A stretch of DNA of 64,000 nucleotides. Origin: a virus. Its lineage: Duplodnaviria > Heunggongvirae > Uroviricota > Caudoviricetes. The number at the start of each line of letters is the position of its first letter. The stretch's first letter is position 1. The notes under the pieces were generated by a model. The model had not been told where the DNA came from, ran no database searches, and saw only the letters and a list, made by a program, of their open reading frames with translations. The position numbers were made by a program, and so were the translations under genes. The stretch lies in the IMG/VR virus record IMGVR_UViG_2861079508_000001; one strand, written 5' to 3'. Of the stretch, positions 46,485-62,957 are shown in pieces.

Positions 46485-46907
46485 ATGAAATACTCGCTTC
46501 TCCCTCTACTAACGTTACCAGTGTTGATGCTTACCGCGTGCCAATCACGCCCAATATCAATCCATGACGCCAAACCAGCACCGCAGGCCAAAGTGTTCAA
46601 GTATCAAAGCGCAGCGCCAGCTACGTTGGTGGTAATGAGAGACACAGGTTTTGTAGGAGCTGGATGTGATGCTTCCATTTTCATCAACGGCGAAACTGTC
46701 GCAAAACTGGCTACAGGCGAAAAAGCGACTTTCCATTTAAATGCCGGAGAATTAATTGTGGGTGCATCTCTTGAAGGTGCAGGTTTATGTGCTCTAAACC
46801 CCGCTCGTCAAGAGCGAGAAACGACTCTGAAGAATGGAGACACAAAAGCGTTCAGGGTGTTCACCAGCAATTCTGGTGACATCGACATTCTGCCAACAAC
46901 TCTGTGA
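46485..46907 (+). CDS. putative lipoprotein
   Basis: Internal start gives signal peptide MKYSLLPLLTLPVLMLTAC with lipobox LTAC. Confidence 0.5.
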   Translation: MKYSLLPLLTLPVLMLTACQSRPISIHDAKPAPQAKVFKYQSAAPATLVVMRDTGFVGAGCDASIFINGETVAKLATGEKATFHLNAGELIVGASLEGAGLCALNPARQERETTLKNGDTKAFRVFTSNSGDIDILPTTL

Positions 46908-46911
46908 TGAC

Positions 46912-47436
46912 ATGACAACCAAAGATATTACCTACGGTATCCAAGCTGAACTCTGGCCGCGAGATTACACTAACGTTGAAAAACTACTGATGTTCTGGCG
47001 CAGAGAACAAATTCCTGTAAGGGTCACTCTCGAAGATGGCCAGGCGTTTTGCATGTACGTTTATGGCCTCATGCCATCTCGTAACAAAGTTGACCTTTGC
47101 CCAGCCCCTTTTGACAAAGAAAATCGTATAAGGCTCCCACTTGAACGCATTAGTACAATTGAATCAGGTGTGGTTGACAGTATCGCTCACGATTTCAAAG
47201 GTCGACTAACAGTTCACCCTGATTATGTCGATAATCGGCCATCACGCCGCGATTTTTTTGCAATTTGCAACCAAGCCTACAAAGCAAACAAATCTATAAG
47301 GGTGTACATGGCGGATGGCCGTGAAATTGAGGGGGTGTCAGCAGGCGCAGATGCTTGTCAGGTTACACTACGTGTCGAGAACGGTAGAAAAATAGTTGTT
47401 TTGTTCGATTGGGTTGAACGAATTTTGCCTTTTTGA
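46912..47436 (+). CDS. hypothetical protein
   Basis: Start trimmed to first ATG after upstream stop; ~175 aa. Confidence 0.4.
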   Translation: MTTKDITYGIQAELWPRDYTNVEKLLMFWRREQIPVRVTLEDGQAFCMYVYGLMPSRNKVDLCPAPFDKENRIRLPLERISTIESGVVDSIAHDFKGRLTVHPDYVDNRPSRRDFFAICNQAYKANKSIRVYMADGREIEGVSAGADACQVTLRVENGRKIVVLFDWVERILPF

Positions 47437-48030: not shown

Positions 48031-48681
48031 ATGGCTAACATTATCATTTCTAAAAAATCCATCATTGAAGCTGCTTCCATTGTATCCGATGAACTGCGCG
48101 AAAAAGCAGATCTGGCAACTCAAACATATAACGAACATTATAAAAATGGTACGCACACTAAAGCAGACAAAGCAAATATGCAAGCTGCGACCACTAAACT
48201 TGCTTACTTCATCAACAACGTCGTAAACGCAGTAGAAGACGAAAAATTATGCTCTGTTTTCTACTATGCGATTAAAGCAAGCAAACAAGCGCCAGAAGTA
48301 TTTTTCCGTGATGCAATGACTAATAGTTATTCTCTGGAAAAACTGGTTTATCTGGTTAAATCAATTAAATCTGGTAAATGCGTTTATTCCATCGCTGATA
48401 TGTCAGGATCTCGTGTATTCGCTTTAATCGATATGATTAACGACGAGATCGACACGTTCACCAATGGCGCTGTTTTCGATTTAATGAATGAAGCTAAAAA
48501 AGCGTGCGAAATTAAATTGGACGCTGGCTATACTCAAGCCAACCAGTTGATCAATCTTTGCGAACGTCTTGGACTTGTTGAGAAAGTCAAAGGAATGGGA
48601 AGCGCAAAAGCTGGTACACAGCAATATCGCTTTATCAAGAATGATTTCTACAATTATTTAGCTGATGCTTTTAAAGCGTAA
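48031..48681 (+). CDS. hypothetical protein
   Basis: 216 aa; preceded by TTGCAA-N16-GATAAT promoter-like sequence and followed by GCGCCCACTATGGGCGC hairpin. Confidence 0.5.
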   Translation: MANIIISKKSIIEAASIVSDELREKADLATQTYNEHYKNGTHTKADKANMQAATTKLAYFINNVVNAVEDEKLCSVFYYAIKASKQAPEVFFRDAMTNSYSLEKLVYLVKSIKSGKCVYSIADMSGSRVFALIDMINDEIDTFTNGAVFDLMNEAKKACEIKLDAGYTQANQLINLCERLGLVEKVKGMGSAKAGTQQYRFIKNDFYNYLADAFKA

Positions 48682-48692
48682 TTAATGGAATC

Positions 48693-48713
48693 AAGCGCCC
48701 ACTATGGGCGCTT
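48693..48713 (+). terminator. hairpin terminator (GCGCCCACTATGGGCGC) after gene 48031..48681
   Basis: Same hairpin reused at 49192-49217; short T-run. Confidence 0.45.
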
Positions 48714-48731
48714 TAAAGGAGCTTTAAAAAA

Positions 48732-48935
48732 ATGGTCAGCTATGACAAGATCCGCGCAAAGTATCGCGCAAAGTATCGCGCTTATAAACTGGAATTAATC
48801 GATGATTTGATCGCGCAACGCGACCAATTAAATTTTACGTTTTCTGATTTGCTTAACAGCAAGCGAGATTGCAAGCGCAAACGTGAATACTTACGTTTAA
48901 GCGCATTAATCGGAAAACTTCAAAATTCTATTTAA
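48732..48935 (+). CDS. hypothetical small basic protein
   Basis: 67 aa; contains direct DNA repeat CGCGCAAAGTAT x2 near its 5' end. Confidence 0.35.
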   Translation: MVSYDKIRAKYRAKYRAYKLELIDDLIAQRDQLNFTFSDLLNSKRDCKRKREYLRLSALIGKLQNSI

Positions 48936-48956
48936 TTTTTTTTAAGGAGCTTAATC

Positions 48957-49187
48957 ATGTTTGTTCTTATCGCTGGCGTTAACGTCCATAATGAATATTA
49001 TGTTAATCGCATCGCTGGGATCGCTGGTTACGCTGGGCGCGCAGTCGAGCTTATAGATGAAACGACGCGCAAAATTGACTTATTGAGCGACCAGGAGCGA
49101 AAAAAAGCAGACGTGAACGACGCTGATATATTTTTAATGTTAAAAGCGTTTGTAGAAATGGGATTTAAAATCAGTTTACACAAATAA
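48957..49187 (+). CDS. hypothetical small protein
   Basis: 76 aa; RBS AAGGAG upstream; strong terminator downstream. Confidence 0.4.
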   Translation: MFVLIAGVNVHNEYYVNRIAGIAGYAGRAVELIDETTRKIDLLSDQERKKADVNDADIFLMLKAFVEMGFKISLHK

Positions 49188-49191
49188 AATC

Positions 49192-49217
49192 GAGCGCCCA
49201 CTATGGGCGCTTTTTTT
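49192..49217 (+). terminator. rho-independent terminator after gene 48957..49187
   Basis: GCGCCCACTATGGGCGC followed by TTTTTTT. Confidence 0.65.
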
Positions 49218-49238
49218 CGTTTCCAATACACCTACCAT

Positions 49239-49266
49239 AACGCGCCATCATTGGCGCGTTTTTATT
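49239..49266 (+). terminator. second tandem terminator
   Basis: ACGCGCCA-TCAT-TGGCGCGT followed by TTTTTATT. Confidence 0.55.
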
Positions 49267-49659
49267 GTCTTTAACTCACTCCAACAACATAAAAATAAGC
49301 GCCAAAATAACGCCATAGACGCGCTTTTATATCCTTACCAGTACATGCCCATTACTTAACACATTAACGCGCTTAAAACGCATTATATTGCGCTATAGAG
49401 TATGGTTAATCATTGGCTTTTAGTCTTGCTATGTGATCCGCGTTTATTTGTCGGTGCGGATCGGCATTTTGTTTTGTTCTGTATCCGCTCGCGTATTATG
49501 TGCGCGTAATTTTTCACATAATCACACCACTTAATCACGTATGTGATTATGCTACGAAAGAAATCTGGATGTCTCAGGCGACGAAAGTCATCATAATTTC
49601 CCCCGCTCACCTGTCCGACAACCGCTGGTTGGATTCCACCAGCTTCCCGATGTTTTTTC

Positions 49660-49800
49660 TACACAAAGGCGAATGCAGCCGTTTCCCGAAAAAATCCTGG
49701 CCGTTCCCCGTCGGCTCATGAATACGTTCCTCGCCGTTTCTGAAAATTTCCCTGCGGCAGCTGGTGGCTATAGAGAAAGGGCCGTTTCTGGCCCTCTTCT
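49660..49800 (+). repeat. iteron-like direct repeat array A (unit ~CCGTTTCCCGAAAA)
   Basis: At least 4 degenerate copies (AGCCGTTTCCCGAAAAAA, GCCGTTCCCCG, CGCCGTTTCTGAAAATTTCCC, GCCGTTTCTGG) in a region without convincing ORFs. Confidence 0.5.
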
Positions 49801-49803
49801 CAG

Positions 49804-50286
49804 TTACACGCCATCAAGGATGTGGATGCGGTTGCTTGCGTATACATTCAGCATAAAGTTAGCGCAAAACAGTTTCCATGTATCAACGCCAGCGGTATAC
49901 GTAATGTTTTTGCATTTAATTGCATTGTTGGCGATCCGCATCCCCTGCGATACTGCTTCATCGTCGGAAAATTTGAACGACGATTGAGTTTTAATCCAGA
50001 CAGAAATCTGCGTAGCGAACTCAATCAGCTTGGACTGGCAGAATCGCCCGGAGCGCACCGGAAGGACGAACGTTCCGAATCCAGAATTTACCACATATGC
50101 TTTCTCAAATACCCGCGAGTAACGACGATTGCCAATGATGTCGCGTGCAATAATGCATTTTTCTTGTGCTGACAGTTCTACCGTCTCATTGTCGCGCCAT
50201 GCACCAAGTACTCGTTTTTCAATGTCAGAGAACGTTACAGCGATATTGCCATGTGCGGGTGCGTTTACAGTAGCGATAAAATTCAT
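49804..50286 (-). CDS. hypothetical protein
   Basis: 160 aa; own promoter with motif-1 operator between GATAAT and RBS. Confidence 0.45.
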   Translation of the reverse strand: MNFIATVNAPAHGNIAVTFSDIEKRVLGAWRDNETVELSAQEKCIIARDIIGNRRYSRVFEKAYVVNSGFGTFVLPVRSGRFCQSKLIEFATQISVWIKTQSSFKFSDDEAVSQGMRIANNAIKCKNITYTAGVDTWKLFCANFMLNVYASNRIHILDGV

Positions 50287-50307
50287 GATTAATTCCTTAT
50301 CGTAAAT

Positions 50308-50322
50308 AACAAATTGTTTTCT
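50308..50322. promoter_or_regulatory. motif 1 operator-like palindrome
   Basis: Minus-sense layout GATAAT - 8 nt - AGAAAACAATTTGTT - RBS - ATG of gene 49804..50286. Confidence 0.55.
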
Positions 50323-50636
50323 TGTTGGTGTTAATTATCGTTGTACGAATAAGGCGTCAAAGTGGAAAGTTGCGGTAGCCGGACGGGAACAGGTGGGTTT
50401 GTCGGTTGCCTGGAGGTAAGAGGTTGGTGTTATTAGCCTGAGGGAAACAGGATGGTCATTTAAGACCACCAATGCTGGTGGCCTTAATAATTATCGCCCG
50501 ATTACGCTAAGGATCTTTTCCTCAACTGATTTGTTGTTGCGACTAAACTGCCTTGCGTATCTGATGACAGAAGAGGCGTTTTGCTTTCTGACCATCTCGG
50601 CTCTTTCCTTCAGGCGTTTCTTGAAATCGCCCATAT

Positions 50637-51011
50637 TTACCACCAGGCGCAGAAGGTCAGTCTGTTATTGTGAAAGTCGTGGTTCTTAATCAGATCTTCC
50701 ACAAGCTCTTTCAACTGCCCCACATCATGCCAGTAACCTTCGTCGTACTCCTGACTGCCGAAGAAAAAACCTTCCCGAGTAGGCAAGTACTCTTCGCAAT
50801 TGCTTTCGTTTATGTGCATCAAATGAGCTTTCAGAAGACAAATGTCATTCATCGTTAATTCTAAAAGCTCACAATTTTCGACTTCACCTACGTTGCGCTC
50901 CATCCACCCAACGAGCGCATTGAACTTACGGAAGTAAGCAACCTGCTTTCTGGATGCCTCGTTATTCAGATCGTTTTTAGGCTGTGTCTCGATATAGATA
51001 TCAAGTCCCAT
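50637..51011 (-). CDS. hypothetical acidic protein
   Basis: Start set at ATG preceded by GGAA; highly acidic; motif-1 variant upstream. Confidence 0.45.
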   Translation of the reverse strand: MGLDIYIETQPKNDLNNEASRKQVAYFRKFNALVGWMERNVGEVENCELLELTMNDICLLKAHLMHINESNCEEYLPTREGFFFGSQEYDEGYWHDVGQLKELVEDLIKNHDFHNNRLTFCAWW

Positions 51012-51067
51012 GATGGTTTCCTTATTAACTTGCTTCAGTAAAATCATTTTCACAAATCAGATAAGGC

Positions 51068-51083
51068 AGAAAACAAATTGTTA
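51068..51083. promoter_or_regulatory. motif 1 variant (AGAAAACAAATTGTTA)
   Basis: Upstream of gene 50637..51011. Confidence 0.45.
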
Positions 51084-51095
51084 TCTGGCTTAATA

Positions 51096-51120
51096 AAATG
51101 GCGCGGTTTACGCGCCATTT
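51096..51120 (-). terminator. rho-independent terminator after amber-interrupted gene
   Basis: Minus-sense AAATGGCGCG-TAAA-CCGCGCCATTT followed by TATT. Confidence 0.6.
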
Positions 51121-51128
51121 AAAGAGGA

Positions 51129-51524
51129 TTAAGCGAATACGCTTTCAGGGATTAAGGTGTCGGCAGGAATGCCAGAGGTAATGCGCAGGCCGTACTGACC
51201 AATCCAGGTAGTGTTGGTATTCAGGCTGGAGGCGAATACGGTGTTAACCATATTCATCATGGTTTCAAACACCTCTTCATCAACCTAGCGGAAGTAGTTC
51301 TCGATTTTCAGCAGCAGCGGGTCAGTTGCATCGAGAATGGACTGGTATTGAGTCGCGTACTCGCCGCCGGAGGCATCACCTTTACGCACGATCGTACTGG
51401 CCTGGACTTCGGCACCAGTTTCGGTGTTGTACGTAACAACGGTAATTTTTGCCACATTCTTACCTTCGGCGGTTTCAGAGGCATAGTAAACATCAACTGT
51501 CAGTTTTTCGCGTTTAACGGTCAT
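51129..51524 (-). pseudogene. hypothetical gene interrupted by in-frame amber (TAG) codon at 51285-51287
   Basis: 79-codon ORF ends at TAG but the same frame continues for 52 protein-like codons to TAA at 51129-51131, which is immediately followed by a hairpin+T-run terminator. Confidence 0.5.
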
Positions 51525-51562
51525 TTCACTCTCCGTAGTGTATTGGTTATTTTTATATTCTA

Positions 51563-51587
51563 TAATCGTAAGTATTTACTTACAATA
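51563..51587 (-). promoter_or_regulatory. motif 2 element
   Basis: AATCGTAAGTATTTACTTACAATAC upstream of amber-interrupted gene. Confidence 0.4.
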
Positions 51588-51649
51588 CAAAAAGCCCCGT
51601 AAGGATGGCGGGGCTGTCGTACTGTCGACTAATTGCCACTTGCACATTA

Positions 51650-51961
51650 TCAGGCTATTGCCATCACTGATGCTCTCTGAATTTCTTGCTGGGCCACGCG
51701 GTTAACTTCCATCAAGGCCAGTTCGAGCTGATGTTCCGGCCACATTCTTTGAAACGCCATCCAGCCTTTTCCACGCTGGCGACGAACATTCATTACATAA
51801 CGAGTAAAGGTGTTTTTATCGAAAGACACCGCTGTTTCACGGAACAGACGAATAGAGGTTCCATTGGCAACGATGTCCAGCAAAGTTAATTGAGCAACCA
51901 GCGCAGGCTTCTCTTTTCTCTTCTGGTCTTTGTCCAGACCAAGAACCAATGATTTTTTCAT
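51650..51961 (-). CDS. hypothetical basic protein
   Basis: Start set at internal ATG (MKKSLVLGLD...) because the motif-1 operator overlaps the longer ORF. Confidence 0.45.
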   Translation of the reverse strand: MKKSLVLGLDKDQKRKEKPALVAQLTLLDIVANGTSIRLFRETAVSFDKNTFTRYVMNVRRQRGKGWMAFQRMWPEHQLELALMEVNRVAQQEIQRASVMAIA

Positions 51962-51972
51962 CACAACTCCGT

Positions 51973-51988
51973 AAACAACTTGTTTTCT
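51973..51988. promoter_or_regulatory. motif 1 operator-like palindrome
   Basis: Between TATTATTTA (-10-like) and ATG of gene 51650..51961. Confidence 0.55.
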
Positions 51989-52115
51989 CAATGGCGTAAA
52001 TAATACCAATAAGAAAACGGCTACAAAGCATAATGATCAGGTGCATGAGCGATATGCAGGTTCTTCCCTGCGGCTACAGATTAAGTTAAGCCAGCAATGC
52101 TGGCTTTGGTTGGGA

Positions 52116-52445
52116 TTACGCGAATACCTCAAGAAACTCCTGAACGTCCCAATGCTGGACGAGGTGAAGATAGACCTTAGAAATCACGTCATTTTCGCTA
52201 TCGCATGTGAAGTAGTACTTCTGGCTGCGGTTGTATGTGTCCACACAAAATTCGCTCATATCCATAAAGTCAGCATCATCACCCAGGTCGCTAATCATCA
52301 AAGCAGGTGCATCATCACGAGTCATCAGCTCCAGCACCCATCTTGAATTAATCAGAGTGGAAGACCAACCTTCCAGCTCATAAAACTGGTCAAACTCTTT
52401 TTGAGTCAATTTCTTAATTTGGTTGATGTCGATATTTGCAAACAT
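52116..52445 (-). CDS. hypothetical small acidic protein (candidate DNA-mimic/anti-restriction-like)
   Basis: Start at ATG preceded by AAGGA; ~110 aa with many Asp/Glu; GATAAT + motif-1 operator upstream. Confidence 0.45.
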   Translation of the reverse strand: MFANIDINQIKKLTQKEFDQFYELEGWSSTLINSRWVLELMTRDDAPALMISDLGDDADFMDMSEFCVDTYNRSQKYYFTCDSENDVISKVYLHLVQHWDVQEFLEVFA

Positions 52446-52458
52446 AAAGCAATCCTTA

Positions 52459-52474
52459 AACAAGATGTTTTCTT
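52459..52474. promoter_or_regulatory. motif 1 variant (AGAAAACATCTTGTTT)
   Basis: Between GATAAT and RBS AAGGA of gene 52116..52445. Confidence 0.5.
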
Positions 52475-52789
52475 AATGGTGTTATTATCGCAATAACGCA
52501 CAGGCGAAAAAGGATTTTATTCCGGTGAATGTGGTTTTGGCAGTGAGTTTTCAGGTTCAGTACAGAGTACACTTTTTACATTATTCTGATTTAGTGGCCG
52601 AAGATGGCTGGTGGGCAGAATAATCATCTCCCCGAAAACCTACTGAAATCGATTGTGACCCGTTGGCTGTCTGGCACAATTACGCTGTAACTGGGCATTC
52701 AGAGGGAATCCAGCGGTAAGTAGGTTCGCCTTCACGTGAGCGCCTCTCTTCTTCCCGCACATTACAGGTGGGTAGCCGCAACTCTCCCT

Positions 52790-52950
52790 CTCGCTATGCC
52801 GGTACGCCGCCGTTCCTGAACCGGCATCGAGCCTTTTCCCGAAATCCACACAGGCAACTCGACCGTTTCCCTGAAAACCTCCAGCCGTTCCCCGAAGGCA
52901 ACCCAGCCGTTTCTGTAGCGGGATGCAACCTTTTCCCTGTATGGACCGAA
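52790..52950 (+). repeat. iteron-like direct repeat array B (same unit family)
   Basis: ~6 tandem ~22-bp units (CCGTTCCTGAACC, CCTTTTCCCGAAATCC, CCGTTTCCCTGAAAACC, CCGTTCCCCGAAGGC, CCGTTTCTGTAGC, CCTTTTCCCTGTATGG). Confidence 0.5.
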
Positions 52951-53049
52951 GGCTGACCGTAGGGGTGTTACGGGGGATAAAATCAGGAGTTGAATAAATA
53001 CGAAAAAGGAGGCGACACCCCTCCTTCCCTCCCCACTTATACATACCTG

Positions 53050-53900
53050 GCTTCTTCGCTATACATGTTGTGTTTTATCTGTCTCAACCTCTCTATAGGC
53101 GTTAATGCTCACTCCTTCCAGAATGTTCTATACGGCAACTATTTCTGTTGGTGAATTGGGTGTGTTGTTCTCTCTGTCGGTGTATGTGGTTTCGTTCGTT
53201 TTGCGGTGGTTCTTCTATGGGGTGTTCTCGTCGTTTTGGTGATTGTTCTTCTCCGTGTATGGAGTAATGGCAGGTGGGCGATTCCTTTCGTTGTTGTGTT
53301 TGAGTTGTTTGTCTGGAGTGTGTGAAAGGCTTTTGCAGTTATTCGTGTATTGGGTAATGGCATTTCCCGTGATTGTTGTGTTTCGTGTCTTTTGGGATTG
53401 AGAGAAACCTTGCGGTTACAGGCTTCGTTGGGGTTTCAGTGATTCTGGTGTTCTTCGCTGTTTGGGGAATGGCGTGTCGTGGGTATCGCGCGTATGAATG
53501 TTTTCGGATTGCCTGTGAAAGTTAGGTTGGTTGTCCGGTAGCCTGGGGAGAAGAGGTGGGTCTTTTCGGTAGCCTGCCATAAAGAGGTTGGTTGTTTTTG
53601 GAAATGGCATTTGTGTTATTTAGTTGTTTTGTTATGCCTGAAAATAAGTTGTTTATATGGTTGTGTAACGCAACGGGAGCGATTTTGAGCGTGTGTTTTT
53701 GTTGGTAGTGTGTTGGGTCGTCTGTGGTGAAAATTGGACGCTGTGGCGCTGTCTGCTGCGTAGAGTTACGGGTATAAGCAGTGATGTGTGAAAACGTCAA
53801 TTTTTTAGACCAAATCGGGTGAAAGCGTTGATGTTTCGTTGATCTGTTATTCAGTTGTTTTCTTGATTGTATAAACAACTATAACTTATTGATATTTAAG
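53050..53900 (+). repeat. GT-skewed non-coding region with periodic GGnTAATGGCA-type repeats
   Basis: Plus strand almost exclusively G/T-rich; recurring TGGAGTAATGGCAGG, TTGGGTAATGGCATTT, GGGGAATGGCGTG, TGGAAATGGCATTTG at ~85-130-bp spacing; also CGGTAGCCTGGGGAGAAGAGGTGGGT duplicated and related to 50400-50430. Confidence 0.5.
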
Positions 53901-54009
53901 GATGTGATTGCGGGTATGGAAGAAGAGTAGTGGCGATCAACGGATTCTTATAGAAAAGAATCAAATTGTGACCGCCATTATCAACTGATTGATTTGTTTA
54001 CTTGTGTAG

Positions 54010-54408
54010 TCAGTTCTCGAAATGAATAGGGTCAACGTAATGCCGCTCACCGCTTTTACCATTACACAGCACTGTAACTTTCGCCTTTTCACTCCAGGCT
54101 GAGTATAGAAAGTTCCCATCAGGTTGAACATGGTAACGAGAGAAGTAAACATCGCCGACTGAGGCGTCGAACATGTTCCTATCTTTTTCACTTTGGGCAA
54201 GCGAGATGGATATCACCGAATTCCCATTTGGGGAAACGATTTTAAATTTATTCCCTATATCCATAACAATATTGTAACCAGGTAATTGCTTGTGTGTTTC
54301 CGGATCTATTTTCATGCATCGTGGGTACACGATAGTGTTAGGCTCTTCAACTGGCGTGGCATTAGCAGAAAGCACAAAAAATATTAGTGCCAATGGTGCA
54401 TATTTCAT
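54010..54408 (-). CDS. secreted protein of unknown function
   Basis: Signal peptide MKYAPLALIFFVLSANA; 132 aa. Confidence 0.5.
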   Translation of the reverse strand: MKYAPLALIFFVLSANATPVEEPNTIVYPRCMKIDPETHKQLPGYNIVMDIGNKFKIVSPNGNSVISISLAQSEKDRNMFDASVGDVYFSRYHVQPDGNFLYSAWSEKAKVTVLCNGKSGERHYVDPIHFEN

Positions 54409-54702
54409 TTATCCCTCACAATTTCCAATTTTCCAGACCATCGTCTATTTCAGCGTCAGGGTGGAATTGTACCGCATCAAATCCTACATCGAGCACCTTT
54501 CGAATGTTCTTGATGGTTTGCTATGTGACACCGTAATCACGCAGCTTTTCTTCCCTCCCCTGACTCCCCCATACTCCGTTTCTGTACCCAATTGAGTCCG
54601 AGATTGTATGGTGCTCGAAACAGATATTTGGTAGACACTCAGAGTCATGCTGTGTAACGAGGGTAGGGCTACTAACTGTCGTCTTATACAATTTGGTGAG
54701 TT

Positions 54703-54951
54703 TCAGCATTTTACCACCCCGTTCGGAAACAACTCATTCGCCGTAGTTGATATAACCTCCCAATTAACGCCGACATCAGCGTTATGGCATTGTCTGATTT
54801 TTTGCATCACCTGTACGCATTGTTCATCAGTGAGATCTGTCCTTACTTCAGCAATATCTTCTTTGTGCCACATAACCATGAGTAAGGGTTCGTCTTCTGG
54901 ATAGTTTTTCAGTTTCTCGATGATTTCTTTTGCTGTTCCAAACATCTTCAT
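54703..54951 (-). CDS. hypothetical small protein
   Basis: 82 aa; RBS GGAG; two motif-1 copies bracketing a GATAAT upstream, abutting the metG terminator. Confidence 0.5.
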   Translation of the reverse strand: MKMFGTAKEIIEKLKNYPEDEPLLMVMWHKEDIAEVRTDLTDEQCVQVMQKIRQCHNADVGVNWEVISTTANELFPNGVVKC

Positions 54952-54956
54952 CTCCT

Positions 54957-55021
54957 AAACAATTTGTTTTCTTATATGACTTATTATCTCAATCAACAAA
55001 AGGTAGAAAACAAATTGTTTT
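54957..55021. promoter_or_regulatory. promoter region with two motif 1 copies bracketing GATAAT
   Basis: AAACAATTTGTTTTCT (54957-54972) and AGAAAACAAATTGTTTT (55005-55021) upstream of gene 54703..54951; ~35 bp from metG terminator. Confidence 0.55.
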
Positions 55022-55058
55022 AGAGTTTGTTAAAGTCAGAAGGGGTTGTGTCTATATG

Positions 55059-55085
55059 AAAATGCCCGGCGTGTTGCCGGGCATT
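55059..55085 (-). terminator. metG rho-independent terminator
   Basis: Minus-sense AATGCCCGGC-AACAC-GCCGGGCATTTT directly after metG stop. Confidence 0.7.
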
Positions 55086-55104
55086 GCGAAGAGAGGTTGT
55101 TTAA

Positions 55105-57138
55105 TTACTTAACCTGGTGGCCAGGTTTAGCACCAGCATCCGGGCTTAACAGGAAGATATCTTTCCCGCCGGGGCCAGCAGCCATCACCATGCCTTCAGA
55201 GATACCGAAGCGCATTTTACGTGGTGCCAGGTTAGCCACCATAATGGTGTGACGACCAATCAGTGCCTGTGGATCTGGATAAGCGGAACGGATGCCTGAG
55301 AAGACATTACGCTTTTCACCACCGAGATCCAGCGTCAGGCGAAGCAGTTTGTCAGAACCTTCTACAAACTCTGCGTTTTCAATCAGCGCCACGCGCAGGT
55401 CAACTTTGGCGAAGTCGTCAAAGGTGATAGTTTCCTGAATCGGGTCGTCAGCCAGTGGGCCAGTTACCGGTGCGGCTGTGGCTTTCACTTCTTCTTTGGA
55501 TGCTTCCACCAGTGCTTCAACCTGCTTCATATCGATGCGGTTATACAGTGCCTTGAACGGATTCACTTTATGGCCCAGCAGCGGTTGCTGGATACCATCC
55601 CAGGTCAGTTCTGTATTCAGGAATGCTTCTGCACGTTCAGTCAGTTTCGGCAGTACCGGTTTCAGGTACGTCATCAGCACGCGGAACAGGTTAATGCCCA
55701 TAGAGCAAATCGCCTGCAGATCGGCATCGCGTCCTTCCTGCTTTGCCACCACCCACGGAGCCTGTTCATCAACATAGCGGTTAGCCAGGTCAGCCAGTGC
55801 CATGATTTCACGGATAGCTTTGCCAAATTCGCGGCTTTCCCATGCTTCGCCAATCACTTCAGCGGCATCAGTAAAGGTTTTGTACAGTTGCGGGTCAGCC
55901 AGTTCGCTTGCCAGCACGCCGTCAAAACGCTTGTTGATAAAGCCTGCATTACGGGAGGCCAGGTTAACCACTTTGTTAACGATATCGGCATTCACACGCT
56001 GAACGAAATCTTCCAGGTTGAGATCGATATCATCAATGCGCGAAGAGAGTTTCGCAGTGTAGTAGTAACGCAGGCTGTCGGCGTCAAAATGATTCAGCCA
56101 GGTGCTGGCTTTAATAAAGGTGCCGCGAGACTTGGACATCTTCGCGCCGTTCACCGTCACATAGCCGTGAACAAACAGGTTGGTCGGCTTGCGGAAGTTG
56201 CTGCCTTCCAGCATGGCAGGCCAGAACAGGCTGTGGAAGTAAACGATATCTTTGCCGATGAAGTGGTACAGCTCGGCGGTGGAGTCTTTCTTCCAGTATT
56301 CGTCGAAGCTGGTAGTGTCGCCGCGTTTGTCGCACAGATTCTTGAAGGAACCCATGTAGCCAATCGGCGCGTCCAGCCAGACGTAGAAGTATTTGCCCGG
56401 TGCGTTCGGAATTTCAAAACCGAAGTAAGGTGCGTCACGGGAGATATCCCACTGTTGCAGGCCAGATTCAAACCACTCCTGCATTTTGTTTGCCACCTGC
56501 TCCTGCAACGCACCGCTGCGGGTCCATGCCTGCAACATTTCGCTGAAAGAAGGCAGATCAAAGAAGAAGTGTTCGGAATCACGCATTACCGGTGTAGCGC
56601 CAGAAACCACTGATTTCGGCTCGATCAGTTCCGTCGGGCTGTATGTCGCGCCGCAGACTTCACAGTTATCGCCGTATTGATCCGGCGCTTTACATTTCGG
56701 GCATGTGCCTTTTACAAAACGGTCCGGCAGGAACATGCCTTTTTCCGGGTCGTACAGCTGAGAGATGGTGCGGTTTTTAATAAAACCGTTCTCTTTCAGG
56801 CGAGTATAGATAAGCTCGGACAACTGACGGTTCTCTTCGCTGTGCGTCGAGTGATAGTTGTCATAGCTGATGTTAAAGCCTGCGAAATCAGTCTGATGTT
56901 CCTGACTCATTTCGCCAATCATCTGTTCCGGTGTGATACCAAGCTGCTGTGCTTTCAGCATGATTGGCGTACCGTGGGCATCGTCGGCACAGATGAAATT
57001 AACCTCGTGGCCGCGCATTCGCTGGTAACGAACCCAGACATCAGCCTGGATGTGCTCCAGCATATGGCCGAGGTGGATTGAGCCGTTAGCGTACGGCAGC
57101 GCGCACGTCACCAGAATTTTCTTCGCGACTTGGGTCAT
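55105..57138 (-). CDS. metG: methionine--tRNA ligase
   Basis: 677-aa product from the ATG at 57136-57138 (track ORF is 43 codons longer from an upstream alternative start); HLGH and KMSKS class-I motifs; sequence I recognise as Escherichia-type MetG. Confidence 0.95.
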
Positions 57139-57295
57139 AGTAGGCATTACTTCTTTGTAGTGAAAAGGGGCTTGATAGTAACAAAATGGCCTTATGTCTG
57201 CCATGTGATAACAGCATTTCTCATAAATGATTAAATGTCGTAGCTGGAGTACACTACAAGGCGACAATTGCGCAAATTAAAATAAAGGAGACGGG

Positions 57296-58396
57296 ATGAG
57301 CGAGTCCAAATCGCCGGATGCCCTGAGAGCAATGGTAGCCGGTACGCTGGCTAATTTTCAGCACCCAACCCTGAAACACAACCTGACTACGCTTAAAGCG
57401 TTACACCATGTTGCGTTGATGGATGACACACTGCATGTCGAACTAATCATGCCTTTCGTGTGGAATAAGCCTTTTGAAGACCTGAAAGAGCAATGTAGTG
57501 GTGATCTGCTCCGTATCACTGGCGCAAAGGCTATTGACTGGAAGCTGTCGTACAACATTGCCACGCTTAAGCGCGTCAAAAACCAACCAGGCATTAATGG
57601 CGTTAAGAACATTATCGCCGTCAGCTCAGGCAAGGGCGGCGTGGGTAAATCCTCCACGGCGGTAAACCTGGCACTGGCGTTGGCTGCTGAAGGTGCGAAA
57701 GTTGGTATTTTGGATGCCGATATCTATGGTCCATCAATTCCAACCATGCTGGGCGCGGAAAACCAACGTCCAACCTCACCGGACGGTACTCACATGGCAC
57801 CTATCATGTCTCATGGCCTGGCAACCAACTCTATTGGTTATCTGGTCACCGACGACAATGCAATGGTGTGGCGTGGACCGATGGCCAGCAAGGCGCTGAT
57901 GCAGATGTTGCAGGAAACACTGTGGCCTGATCTGGACTATCTCGTTCTCGATATGCCACCGGGCACTGGTGATATTCAATTGACGCTGGCGCAGAACATT
58001 CCTGTAACTGGTGCGGTTGTGGTAACTACGCCGCAAGACATCGCGCTGATCGATGCGAAGAAAGGCATTGTGATGTTCGAAAAAGTCGAAGTGCCGGTAC
58101 TGGGTATCGTTGAAAACATGAGTGTGCATATTTGCAGTAACTGCGGTCATCACGAGCCAATTTTTGGCACCGGTGGCGCACAGAAACTGGCCGAGAAATA
58201 CAACACGCAGTTGTTAGGCCAAATGCCACTTCATATCTCTCTTCGTGAAGATCTGGATAACGGAACACCAACCGTTATTAGTCGTCCAGATAGTGAATTT
58301 ACGGCTATTTATCGTGACCTCGCAGATCGCGTTGCTGCCCAAATGTATTGGCAAGGTGAAGTAATACCTGGCGAAATCGCATTCCGCGCAGTGTGA
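57296..58396 (+). CDS. apbC: iron-sulfur cluster carrier ATPase ApbC/Mrp
   Basis: P-loop [10 protein letters not shown], CxxC (CSNCGH); divergent from metG as in the Escherichia chromosome. Confidence 0.95.
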
Positions 58397-58583
58397 TAAA
58401 AAGGTGGTGCTTTTGCCGTTACGCACCACCCCGTCAGTAGCTGAACAGGAGGGACAGCTGATAGAAACAGAAGCCACTGGAGCACCTCAAAAACACCATC
58501 ATACACTAAATCAGTAAGTTGGCAGCATCACCGAGCGCCAGCGGCGAACATATGAGCTTCGGAAATACTAGACATTCTTAACT

Positions 58584-59820: not shown

Positions 59821-59849
59821 ATTAAGTAAGCATTTACCTATCATTTAAC
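59821..59849 (-). promoter_or_regulatory. motif 2 element
   Basis: ATTAAGTAAGCATTTACCTATCATTTAAC upstream of gene 59075..59779. Confidence 0.4.
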
Positions 59850-61526
59850 GCGTTTGAAAACGTATACGCTGACTGTGATCCCTGTGTCTTCAAACTCGTT
59901 GGTAAACGACTTCCCTCTGGCATAAACGTAATTATCCATCGTCATCCAGTCCAGTATTGGCGCAGTGCCCGGCAATACTGCTACAAGACGCCCGCCGACT
60001 TTCAGATGCCCCAGCGCAGCCAGCGTGTGCTCTCTATGACGACCAAGCGAGTACGGCGGGTTCATAACGATTTTGTCGAACTGATAACCTGCGTTGTCCT
60101 CAGACCACTTTATGAAGTCGCAGCAAATCGTGTTCGTATACCCTTTTCCACGCAGGATATCAGCGAAGAGAGGTGCGATTTCTATGCAGGTAACATCTTC
60201 CAGATCGGCGTCAATATAGGCCAGAAGATCCCCACGTCCGGCTTGAGGCTCCAACAGCTTCTCACCAGGCTTCAATTCAGTGGCTCTTGCAACGTACTCA
60301 GCAATCAAGCGTGGGGTAGGGTAGAACTGGTGTGATTTTGTATCCGGTATTAAACCGGTAGCCACAATCGTATTTAGCGTATGGCCGATGTCATACGGGA
60401 ACTGCCAGTGCTTTTTCTCCTGCACGCCGCCAATGAAGCTCAGTGTGCGCTCAAGCTCTTCCACCTGCGACTTCTGGAGAGCTGAATCAGAGAAGTACCA
60501 TACACCTTTGTCTTTGCTCAATCGCCCGTCACGAAGCGCAGTGCGAACCGGCACGGAGATCGTCTTCTGGATTAAACCGAACTGCTTTGGTGCCCGTGTT
60601 TTTGGCGCAGTTCGGCATGGCGCGGGGATTGCAGCAGGCATACTGTAAGCCAGCACCTCATTCAACTTCCAGGCCACGTCAGGATGTATTTCAAAGTGAA
60701 CGTTGCCGTTCTTGAACATCTTCACGCGCATCAGATTTCCATCGACGTTCATCCAGTCACCGGTCTGGCAGTCGTTTGCCCGATACGCAGCTGATAGCAC
60801 CTCAGCAGTGCGGTTGATGGTAATAAATTCTTTGTGCGCGAAGAAATGAAGCAAGACACGCAGATCGTCGATGTAGTCCTCTTTGCGATAGTTCACGCTA
60901 ACGCTGTCCCGCCAGAAATCAGAAATGCAGTCAGCGATTATCAGCCGCTCGCTGAAACCATTTGTCTTATTTGTCTTGTGCACAGGACTCAGCGCCTTAA
61001 ACAAGCCATACACGCGCTCAGAGAGATATTTGTGCCTGTCATTCAGCAAATTAAGCATCGTGGGTATGACCGTTTCTGCTTTGAACTCCGGTACACCAAC
61101 GAACTCTTTAACCTTCATCTGGTAGCCGGTTCTGTCAGTTTTGATGACTTCCTGTTTGCCCTCTATAAACTGCTCGCGCCACTCATCTCGACGGGAAGCT
61201 GGCATGATCAGCAAAACGTTAGTCATGTCCGTGACCTTCCTCCAGTACTCGGCCCAAATATTCTGTTTCACCCATTCCAGATCGACTTTATCCAACCAAC
61301 CTCGATTTAAACGCGAGCGATCTTCATCTGGTCGATGGTTTAGTTTCAGCAGGCGATTAATCATGTTGTGGCGTTCGTCGCCATAAACGAAGTTGTGAAC
61401 CTGATACATGAAGGCGATCTCTTTCTCGCACTCGGCCACAATTTCGTGGATAACGTTCATTTCCTGACGATAATCGATAGCAGTGTTTGAGCTGGCATCG
61501 TCGATGATGGAAAGGGCTGTATTCAT
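59841..61526 (-). CDS. N6-adenine DNA methyltransferase with large N-terminal domain of unknown function (no adjacent restriction gene seen)
   Basis: C-terminal region has FYPTP...LEPQAGRGDLL (SAM-binding motif I region) and IVMNPPY (motif IV NPPY); 561 aa. Confidence 0.65.
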   Translation of the reverse strand: MNTALSIIDDASSNTAIDYRQEMNVIHEIVAECEKEIAFMYQVHNFVYGDERHNMINRLLKLNHRPDEDRSRLNRGWLDKVDLEWVKQNIWAEYWRKVTDMTNVLLIMPASRRDEWREQFIEGKQEVIKTDRTGYQMKVKEFVGVPEFKAETVIPTMLNLLNDRHKYLSERVYGLFKALSPVHKTNKTNGFSERLIIADCISDFWRDSVSVNYRKEDYIDDLRVLLHFFAHKEFITINRTAEVLSAAYRANDCQTGDWMNVDGNLMRVKMFKNGNVHFEIHPDVAWKLNEVLAYSMPAAIPAPCRTAPKTRAPKQFGLIQKTISVPVRTALRDGRLSKDKGVWYFSDSALQKSQVEELERTLSFIGGVQEKKHWQFPYDIGHTLNTIVATGLIPDTKSHQFYPTPRLIAEYVARATELKPGEKLLEPQAGRGDLLAYIDADLEDVTCIEIAPLFADILRGKGYTNTICCDFIKWSEDNAGYQFDKIVMNPPYSLGRHREHTLAALGHLKVGGRLVAVLPGTAPILDWMTMDNYVYARGKSFTNEFEDTGITVSVYVFKRVK

Positions 61527-61538
61527 AATTACACCATT

Positions 61539-61554
61539 AAATAATTTGTTTTCT
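61539..61554. promoter_or_regulatory. motif 1 operator-like palindrome
   Basis: Upstream of methyltransferase gene, followed by GGTGTAATTATCG as at 50323-50340. Confidence 0.55.
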
Positions 61555-62268: not shown

Positions 62269-62531
62269 TATTGTCTTTATTGTGATGTGGCATAAAAGGG
62301 GAGCAAGCTAAACGTAAAGGTGCAAACTCTCTATTTCGGTCAACGAAACACAAGGGCCATTTGGCCCTTGTCATTAACACTTTGCTTTACGAACTAACGG
62401 ATAAGCGAAGTAGATCGCCAAACCAATGAGGACGCCATCAGAAATGACAGACATCATCTTTCCCGTAAAATCCACCAACACCGCCATCACCAGAAGAGCA
62501 ATGACGATCACAAGCCGGAATCTCTCAAGCA

Positions 62532-62957
62532 TTAGAGATAAGCATCCAGTGACAACTGAAGCGCCTGGGCGATCTTTTTCAGTGCCTGCTCTTCTTGTTC
62601 ACCAATGCCGTCCTGATCGGCAATATCAAGGCACAGACACAGAACATCGACCGCCTCTGGAGTACCCGCAATATCAGACAGCTCACGAATAGCCTGTGCA
62701 TTAGCAGAACGAGGGGACGCTTCGTAACGAGCACGGATATTGGCGCTCATTTGGGCAATTTCACCAGCAAACGGAGAAAACGCAGGCAGAGCTGCAATTG
62801 TCTTCTCAAGAATGGCAATTTCTTTTGCGTCACATGTGCCGTCGGCATAGGAGATCATGTACGCGCCCCACACGGTGGCCTCAACCGCATCACGGTTCTC
62901 CATTTTTTTGACTTCGATAACAGCTTTACGAGTTTTCTTTTTGAAGAAACCTAACAT
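62532..62957 (-). CDS. TerB-like domain protein (tentative)
   Basis: 141 aa helical protein with pattern reminiscent of TerB/DjlA-N domains (ISYADG...EIAILEK...DIADQDG...EEQALKKIA); family call from pattern only. Confidence 0.35.
   Translation of the reverse strand: MLGFFKKKTRKAVIEVKKMENRDAVEATVWGAYMISYADGTCDAKEIAILEKTIAALPAFSPFAGEIAQMSANIRARYEASPRSANAQAIRELSDIAGTPEAVDVLCLCLDIADQDGIGEQEEQALKKIAQALQLSLDAYL

Follow-up and report, generated by a model that had tools for sequence, protein, structure and literature searches.

Conjugative elements carry anti-defence islands in their leading regions (Samuel et al, 2024; PMC11541004). The ArdA, ArdB (KlcA) and ArdC proteins, together with the establishment islands in which such genes sit, are known as small, mostly acidic and expressed first on entry. 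Ocr (T7 gp0.3) and other early DNA mimics of phages are likewise small acidic early proteins, and the anti-CRISPR proteins AcrIIA13 and AcrIIA13b, which mimic a protospacer-adjacent motif duplex (PDB 7ENI), are also among the closest known systems. In Neisseria, the DNA mimic DMP12 (PDB 3W1O) binds HU (PMC3643605). With regard to control, the C1 regulon of phage P1 uses a single operator sequence at many promoters across the phage-plasmid, small accessory genes included. The P1 operator is asymmetric. Here, we compare with these systems a cluster of small genes at positions 49804-52474 of a 64,000-nucleotide (nt) stretch of viral DNA (IMG/VR record IMGVR_UViG_2861079508_000001), which we refer to as the window. 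By its sequence matches, the window represents an E. coli phage-plasmid of the SSU5/pHCM2 type, because the 3.2 kb around the cluster matched 241 E. coli plasmids (~95-115 kb), no chromosomes, and the phages Cyrano, CMS-2020a and PhiR41_1, and because portal, terminase, tape-measure and tail genes lie upstream of the cluster. The top match to the cluster region was plasmid pSJC33-2 (99.7%), and genes for a ParB-like protein and a helicase adjoin the region.

Our favoured explanation, to which we give a probability of about 0.45, is that the interval consists of early genes, each monocistronic and under repressor control, of which two (B and E) encode acidic proteins that would act as stoichiometric inhibitors of DNA-directed defence proteins. 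The cluster resembles establishment islands in that B-family genes are embedded beside Ard genes in other genomes, and in that an orphan-type methyltransferase gene of the same regulon accompanies it here; the proposed mode of action is that of Ocr. Unlike those islands, it belongs to a phage-plasmid without oriT or leading strand and carries a double-stranded DNA operator at +1, not single-stranded promoters. A literal reading as a plasmid leading region, a likeness drawn in the initial annotation of this DNA, was rejected, as this phage-plasmid is non-conjugative. In sequence, neither B nor E falls into any of the Ard families, and B carries about half as much net charge as a typical ArdA. 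Neither DMP12, which targets HU, nor YfbM of E. coli (DUF1877, PDB 1RYL), which has no assigned function, shows detectable sequence or profile similarity to B, whose YFRKxN, GFFFG and C-terminal WW motifs are its own. The operator differs from that of P1 in being a 17-bp palindrome, and SSU5-type elements are unrelated to P1.

Gene content and selection in the cluster

Five small genes (A-E) and a 47-codon open reading frame (ORF) make up the cluster, all on the minus strand. Lengths in amino acids (aa), isoelectric points (pI), net charges and PHROGs families are given where they apply.

49804..50286, minus strand: gene A, 160 aa, pI 9.2, basic, phrog_1641
50491..50634, minus strand: 47-codon ORF, basic, pI 11, unannotated, starting 2 nt past the stop of B
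50637..51011, minus strand: gene B, 124 aa, pI 4.75, net charge -11, phrog_7971
51129..51524, minus strand: gene C, 131 aa in relatives, mildly acidic, phrog_2473
51650..51961, minus strand: gene D, 103 aa, pI 10.5, basic, phrog_5125
52116..52445, minus strand: gene E, 109 aa, pI 4.17, net charge -13, phrog_7645

The initial annotation had called this a cluster of small acidic proteins and had singled out the ORFs of B and E, whose computed values bear out their strong acidity. The description of the whole cluster goes too far, as only these two of the six products are strongly acidic, those of A, D and the 47-codon ORF being basic. When the products of 75 non-overlapping ORFs of the window are ranked by net charge per residue, E comes first as the most acidic and B (in its 124-aa form) about fourth. 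A is a core gene of the cluster and was present in all relatives examined. Compared with Pfam (E<=1), NCBIfam and PDB sequences, the cluster proteins gave no meaningful match, and within PHROGs they fall solely in families without an assigned function. Searches against Pfam and PHROGs and other sequence searches found no known anti-defence gene in the window.

Genes A, B, D and E are under purifying selection. The ratio of nonsynonymous to synonymous substitution rates (dN/dS) was 0.11-0.14 for B, 0.05 for E (14 synonymous vs 4 nonsynonymous changes) and 0.07-0.17 for A and D where the substitutions numbered more than a handful; A itself gave 0.15-0.17 in the two comparisons with >2 substitutions and 0.30 against relative L025, on 2 substitutions. 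Such low values indicate that these four are real genes under selection. Gene C carries an in-frame amber codon in the window (CAG to TAG at codon 80, 51285-51287) and is intact in pSJC33-2 and Cyrano, while pSJC33-2 has indels in B and D; these lesions are either true inactivations or assembly errors. Together with the replacement of the C-D-E part in Klebsiella relatives, they would suit a cluster that is dispensable, decaying cargo without a current function here. We regard this as very improbable in view of the dN/dS of 0.05-0.17 for A, B, D and E (where more than a handful of substitutions had accumulated), the retention of the region in 208 of the 241 matching plasmids and the conservation of its promoter cassettes; besides, indels in one assembly may be sequencing errors.

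The B family and its genomic context

Genomic context is the strongest evidence on B. A homologue search yielded 78 clusters (29-98% identity), and for the context scan one genome per species was retained, which gave 80 loci whose neighbouring genes were clustered and then annotated. These loci span Proteobacteria, Firmicutes, Actinobacteria, Bacteroidota, Melainabacteria and archaeal metagenome-assembled genomes (MAGs). An Ard gene was found near the B homologue, co-directional and within about 2 kb, at 9/80 genome loci and at two further loci (11 altogether), which represent several kinds of mobile element, among them proteobacterial ICEs (integrative and conjugative elements).

L003, L080, L082, L090: ArdA near the B homologue
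L007, L029: ArdB/KlcA near the B homologue
L030, L032, L033, L072, L101: ArdC (ArdcN and MPTase-PolyVal domains) near the B homologue

For instance, P0040 from E. coli (37% identity to B) is encoded two genes upstream of ArdA, and P0029 (47% identity) directly upstream of an ArdB/KlcA gene in an ICE. ArdC lies downstream of the B homologue in three Xenorhabdus genomes, Providencia and a Proteobacteria MAG, as does ArdB in Salmonella diarizonae. In two Gastranaerophilales MAGs and one rumen bacterium, a co-directional ArdA gene is found about 1.2-1.5 kb upstream. Co-localisation with known anti-defence genes is a property of the B family and not of the locus in this window. The same picture emerged from the profile searches: those for ArdB/KlcA (PF03230) and ArdC (PF08401 with PF18818) matched genes adjoining B homologues and none of the cluster proteins, no cluster protein matched ArdA (PF07275) in the Pfam scan, and an iterated ArdA hidden Markov model matched only neighbours of B homologues. 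Other contexts of the family include mobilisable elements of Eggerthellaceae with a relaxase, and Gram-positive plasmids in which the gene lies near RadC or PolC.

Acidity is kept throughout the B family (median pI 4.57, median net charge -11.5, pI <5.5 in 52/54 members). The alignment has six invariant residues (M1, G2, D4, N31, G81 and F84) and a series of motifs, namely N-terminal MGLD, YFRKxN, ENC, LPTxEGFFFGxxEYDxxY and the C-terminal WW, with a conserved acidic-aromatic patch at residues 74-96. B is predicted to adopt an alpha/beta structure (predicted local distance difference test score, pLDDT, 93.8). Checking structure predictions for DNA-mimic folds, as the initial annotation had suggested, gave a divided answer: the model of B resembles YfbM and the DNA mimic DMP12, the latter being its nearest small-protein fold match, and profile comparison by hhalign of B with YfbM was negative. 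A Pfam scan of 54 family members returned scattered noise only, with the DUF1877 model matching 0/54. A fold search of BFVD retrieved uncharacterised phage proteins only, and literature searches on YfbM and DUF1877 gave nothing relevant.

Resemblance to YfbM raises the prospect that B is an immunity-type protein with a YfbM/DUF1877-like fold, which would neutralise a nuclease or toxin (of an incoming effector, or encoded by the element) and be no DNA mimic. We hold this to be quite improbable, both because of the negative profile results just given and because B has no conserved adjacent partner, the downstream gene varying by lineage without similarity. Pairing B with the small basic ORF that follows it, as a two-gene module, was likewise rejected, since that ORF has no similarity to the one after B in ICEs.

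Resemblance to DMP12, on the other hand, also suits B and E as early host-takeover inhibitors of housekeeping DNA-binding proteins, not of immune systems. Possible targets would be HU and other nucleoid proteins (as for DMP12 and phage Gp46), RecBCD, RecA and the SOS response (as for PsiB), uracil-DNA glycosylase, or RNA polymerase. DMP12 binds HU (PMC3643605), conserved acidity is compatible with any nucleic-acid mimic, and B homologues of lytic phages lie among replication and nucleotide-metabolism genes. We consider this account unlikely. For B, under the favoured explanation, the likeliest target would be a restriction or other DNA-directed defence enzyme met by incoming DNA, because conjugative elements place the B family beside ArdA, ArdB and ArdC.

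Gene E and the acidic proteins of related elements

Homologues of E are restricted to SSU5-like phage-plasmids, and the charge is conserved throughout the family. Per residue, the charge of E (-0.119) equals that of the ArdA of L003 (-0.118) almost exactly, vs -0.089 for B. The predicted structure (pLDDT 83.6) has the order beta3-alpha-beta-alpha2. Under the favoured explanation, E would be a lineage-specific analogue of a B-type inhibitor.

Related phage-plasmids encode different small, strongly acidic proteins in the slots around B and E, some of them paralogous and none assigned to a family, so the region acts like a cassette site whose acidic proteins vary. A Pfam scan of the variable small genes in these syntenic slots matched no known anti-defence family.

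L027, 4378-4659: small acidic protein in a B/E slot
L026, 4711-4992: small acidic protein in a B/E slot
L017, 6497-6862, 7035-7394 and 8569-8898: small acidic proteins in B/E slots

Promoters and a genome-wide operator

The promoters of A, D and E carry a 17-bp palindromic operator, GAAAACAAnTTGTTTTC, at about +1. Their common cassette consists of (C)GATAAT or TATTAT, 11-12 nt, GAAAACAAnTTGTTTAA, and 8-20 nt that include the Shine-Dalgarno sequence, followed by ATG. Promoters with their ribosome-binding sites (RBS), and terminators, are as follows.

50294..50339, minus strand: promoter cassette of A; -10 GATAAT at 50334-50339, operator GAAAACAATTTGTTATT at 50305-50321, RBS AAGGA at 50294-50298
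51046..51085, minus strand: promoter region of B (inferred promoter); operator GATAACAATTTGTTTTC at 51069-51085, extended -10-like TGTGAAAAT at 51046-51054
51557..51585, minus strand: promoter of C; TTGTAA-17-TAGAAT, overlapping the perfect palindrome GTAAGTAAATACTTAC at 51568-51583
51967..52005, minus strand: promoter cassette of D; TATTAT at 52000-52005, operator GAAAACAAGTTGTTTAC at 51971-51987, RBS GGAG
52453..52489, minus strand: promoter cassette of E; GATAAT at 52484-52489, 11 nt, operator GAAAACATCTTGTTTAA at 52456-52472, RBS AAGGA at 52453-52457
49778-49796: terminator hairpin of A, overlapping the left repeat array
51097..51119, minus strand: terminator-like hairpin after C
51593..51615, minus strand: terminator-like hairpin after D

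B and E had each been credited with their own -10 element, operator and RBS. E has the full cassette; at B the operator is inverted relative to the other cassettes and lies about 57 nt 5' of the ATG, ahead of the -10-like element and in the -35 position. C has a σ70-like promoter with a palindrome of its own, and its control therefore differs from that of its neighbours.

Operator copies are not confined to the cluster. The palindrome GAAAACAAnTTGTT has 29 matches in the 64-kb window, both strands counted (3.6 +/- 1.9 in shuffles), and 17 sites match the 17-mer with <=3 mismatches, placed uniformly with respect to the -10 element and the start codon. At least 15 transcription units of the element besides those of the cluster have the palindrome in front of them.

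6208, 9138, 41162, 41187, 46149, 47387, 50305, 51069, 51971, 52456: 17-mer operator sites
53640, 54955, 55006, 58629, 61537, 62251, 62980: 17-mer operator sites, continued

Sites 6208, 9138, 41162 and 41187 precede structural and packaging operons, and 61537 precedes a gene of the DUF4942 family. The cassette is kept in front of orthologous and non-orthologous small genes alike in E. coli, Klebsiella and more distant relatives, where a second, inverted operator is often present 51 bp upstream. The operator thus marks a genome-wide regulon with many copies at promoters, in the manner of the dispersed C1 operators of P1. As it also lies before structural operons, it is no mark of regulation specific to the cluster genes, and the individual regulation proposed in the initial annotation was overstated, even though the operator motif on which it rested is real. 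We found no published description of an SSU5 operator or repressor, or of a 17-bp palindrome regulon, in the literature searched.

From the palindrome at +1 we infer that a dimeric DNA-binding repressor acts at this putative operator. Under the favoured explanation, one element-encoded repressor of this kind would hold all operator-bearing units off in the plasmid-prophage state, and infection or induction would release them jointly, much as with the P1 operators. B and E would then occupy the nucleic-acid-binding surface of a host protein, in stoichiometric fashion.

Published RNA-seq data from E. coli LF82 lysogenic for Cyrano, a 98%-identical prophage-plasmid, bear on this point. In overnight LB culture, the normalised counts were 5.7 for B and 12.8 for E, with a background of 9.8 (PMC9928086, S1 Table), which supports the conclusion that both genes are nearly silent in the lysogen. 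In macrophage samples of LF82(Cyrano), E rose by roughly 3-5 log2 units (PMC9928086, S1 Table). The low counts fit repression in the lysogen together with early expression, the early timing being our surmise. CYRAN_109, the counterpart of the 47-codon ORF, reached 58 counts, about 6x background (PMC9928086, S1 Table) and about 10-fold above B, which implies that the ORF has an internal promoter or is transcribed separately.

Weighing the anti-defence reading

Several observations count against B and E as inhibitors of defence. Only 9 of the 80 genome loci of the B family have an Ard neighbour, and B homologues of lytic phages sit among DNA-metabolism genes (ligase, dUTPase, sigma factor, ribonucleotide reductase (RNR), helicase), not anti-defence genes. 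The MGLD and GFFFG motifs, sharply conserved, might just as well be the signature of an enzyme or of a specific ligand site. By sequence, B and E have no counterpart among the families of Pfam, NCBIfam or PDB, and the ArdA proteins of L080 and L090 are far more charged than either (net -29 to -33, or about -0.15 to -0.18 per residue). All homologues of E are syntenic, so E offers no genomic context of an independent kind. Individual cluster genes may be dispensable, given the indels in B and D of pSJC33-2 and the amber codon in C. Cyrano CYRAN_45 is annotated as a putative repressor, without a link to the operator motif. The anti-defence role of B and E is, so far, a candidate role read from sequence and context.

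Some of these points would equally suit B as an auxiliary protein in DNA replication or repair, or else a small enzyme, whose acidity is incidental, with E an unrelated, lineage-specific early protein. B recurs beside genes for ATP-dependent DNA ligase, dUTPase, helicase and RNR in phage contigs, and its six invariant residues and LPTxEGFFFG block are what such a protein might show. We nevertheless find this improbable: a protein of 124 aa that matches no known catalytic fold is hardly likely to be an enzyme, 52/54 members have kept the charge, and the family occurs in ICEs and plasmids that lack those replication genes.

Overall, the observation of the initial annotation was largely correct, apart from its wording of an acidic, individually regulated cluster. 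Its proposal that B and E are anti-restriction or DNA-mimic candidates is partly supported by what can be read from the sequences, moderately for B, through the Ard neighbours and conserved acidity of its family, and weakly for E.

Flanking repeats and neighbouring genes

Two arrays of GCCGTTYCY repeats bracket the cluster, in agreement with the position between two repeat arrays first assigned to it.

49678..49789, plus strand: left array, four GCCGTTYCY repeats, overlapping the terminator hairpin of A (49778-49796)
52809..52914, plus strand: right array, three exact GCCGTTYCY repeats and one ACCGTTTCC, oriented like the left array

The two arrays account for seven of the window's eight exact GCCGTTYCY copies (8/10 when either G or A is allowed at the first base), and the two-array arrangement around the cluster is kept in every relative examined (L001, L002, L025-L027, L015 and L017). 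The arrays might serve as iterons, as a centromere or as the boundary of a cassette.

Beyond E, 1.5 kb of the window (52500-54000) has no convincing ORF and shows a strong strand asymmetry, with a G- and T-rich plus strand. It contains one operator copy, TGTATnGnGTAATGGCA repeated at about 90-bp spacing, and copies of a 30-nt direct repeat, D1, that is also found between A and the 47-codon ORF. This stretch may be an origin or another cis-acting region. An Rfam search of 48500-55200 found no RNA families.

50369..50456, plus strand: three D1 direct repeats of roughly 30 nt, with two further copies at 53532-53592
59841..61526, minus strand: DUF4942 protein with N6-adenine methyltransferase motifs (LEPQAGRGDL, NPPY), identified by domain and motifs; the orphan methyltransferase of the initial annotation

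The methyltransferase-like gene had been placed next to the cluster. It is preceded by the same promoter-operator cassette (61537-61553) and lies 7.4 kb away, past the non-coding stretch and an IS1-associated metG-apbC insertion. In that insertion, host-like metG (methionyl-tRNA synthetase) and apbC/mrp genes stand beside an IS1 transposase remnant (55105-58500). A gene that starts near 58575, and that appears to have been truncated by the insertion, carries the same promoter variant as B. Further on, a TerB-domain protein (62532-62957, minus strand) and a DUF3927 mini-protein (62374-62532, minus strand) are encoded downstream of another operator cassette; the Cyrano annotation describes this pair as P1 TciA/TciB-like.

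On the other side of the cluster, the ORF at 46834-47436 (plus strand) encodes a full-length homologue of FljA, the phase-1 flagellin repressor (Pfam Flag1_repress, E 2.5e-84), and the family also occurs in relatives L015 and L017. By its homology, the presence of such a protein on a phage-plasmid may alter host flagellin expression.

Implications

A bolder form of the favoured explanation would make the B family (phrog_7971) a novel, very widely distributed class of proteins directed against restriction or other defences, namely nucleic-acid mimics with a YfbM/DMP12 fold, and E a second, lineage-specific mimic, both expressed from a single-repressor early regulon. We judge this version doubtful. 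If it were true, mimics of the B family would be shared by phages (jumbo phages included), phage-plasmids, ICEs and plasmids from most of the bacterial phyla, and by some archaeal viruses, and the early regulon would explain how SSU5-type phage-plasmids establish themselves without a recognised anti-defence gene. A DefenseFinder anti-defence screen found almost nothing in SSU5-group phage-plasmids (bioRxiv 10.1101/2025.09.12.675607), and only 11 DNA-mimic anti-defence proteins are catalogued in a curated database, which makes a positive assay worthwhile. The conserved promoter-operator cassette offers a simple way of listing the early regulon in this group of elements. Phage-plasmids of the SSU5/pHCM2 type carry resistance genes and are frequent in E. 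coli, Shigella, Klebsiella and Salmonella Typhi, and the B family, with its spread over about 80 diverse genome loci, phages and ICEs, would enlarge the anti-defence catalogues and provide a handle on predicting the host range of mobile elements.

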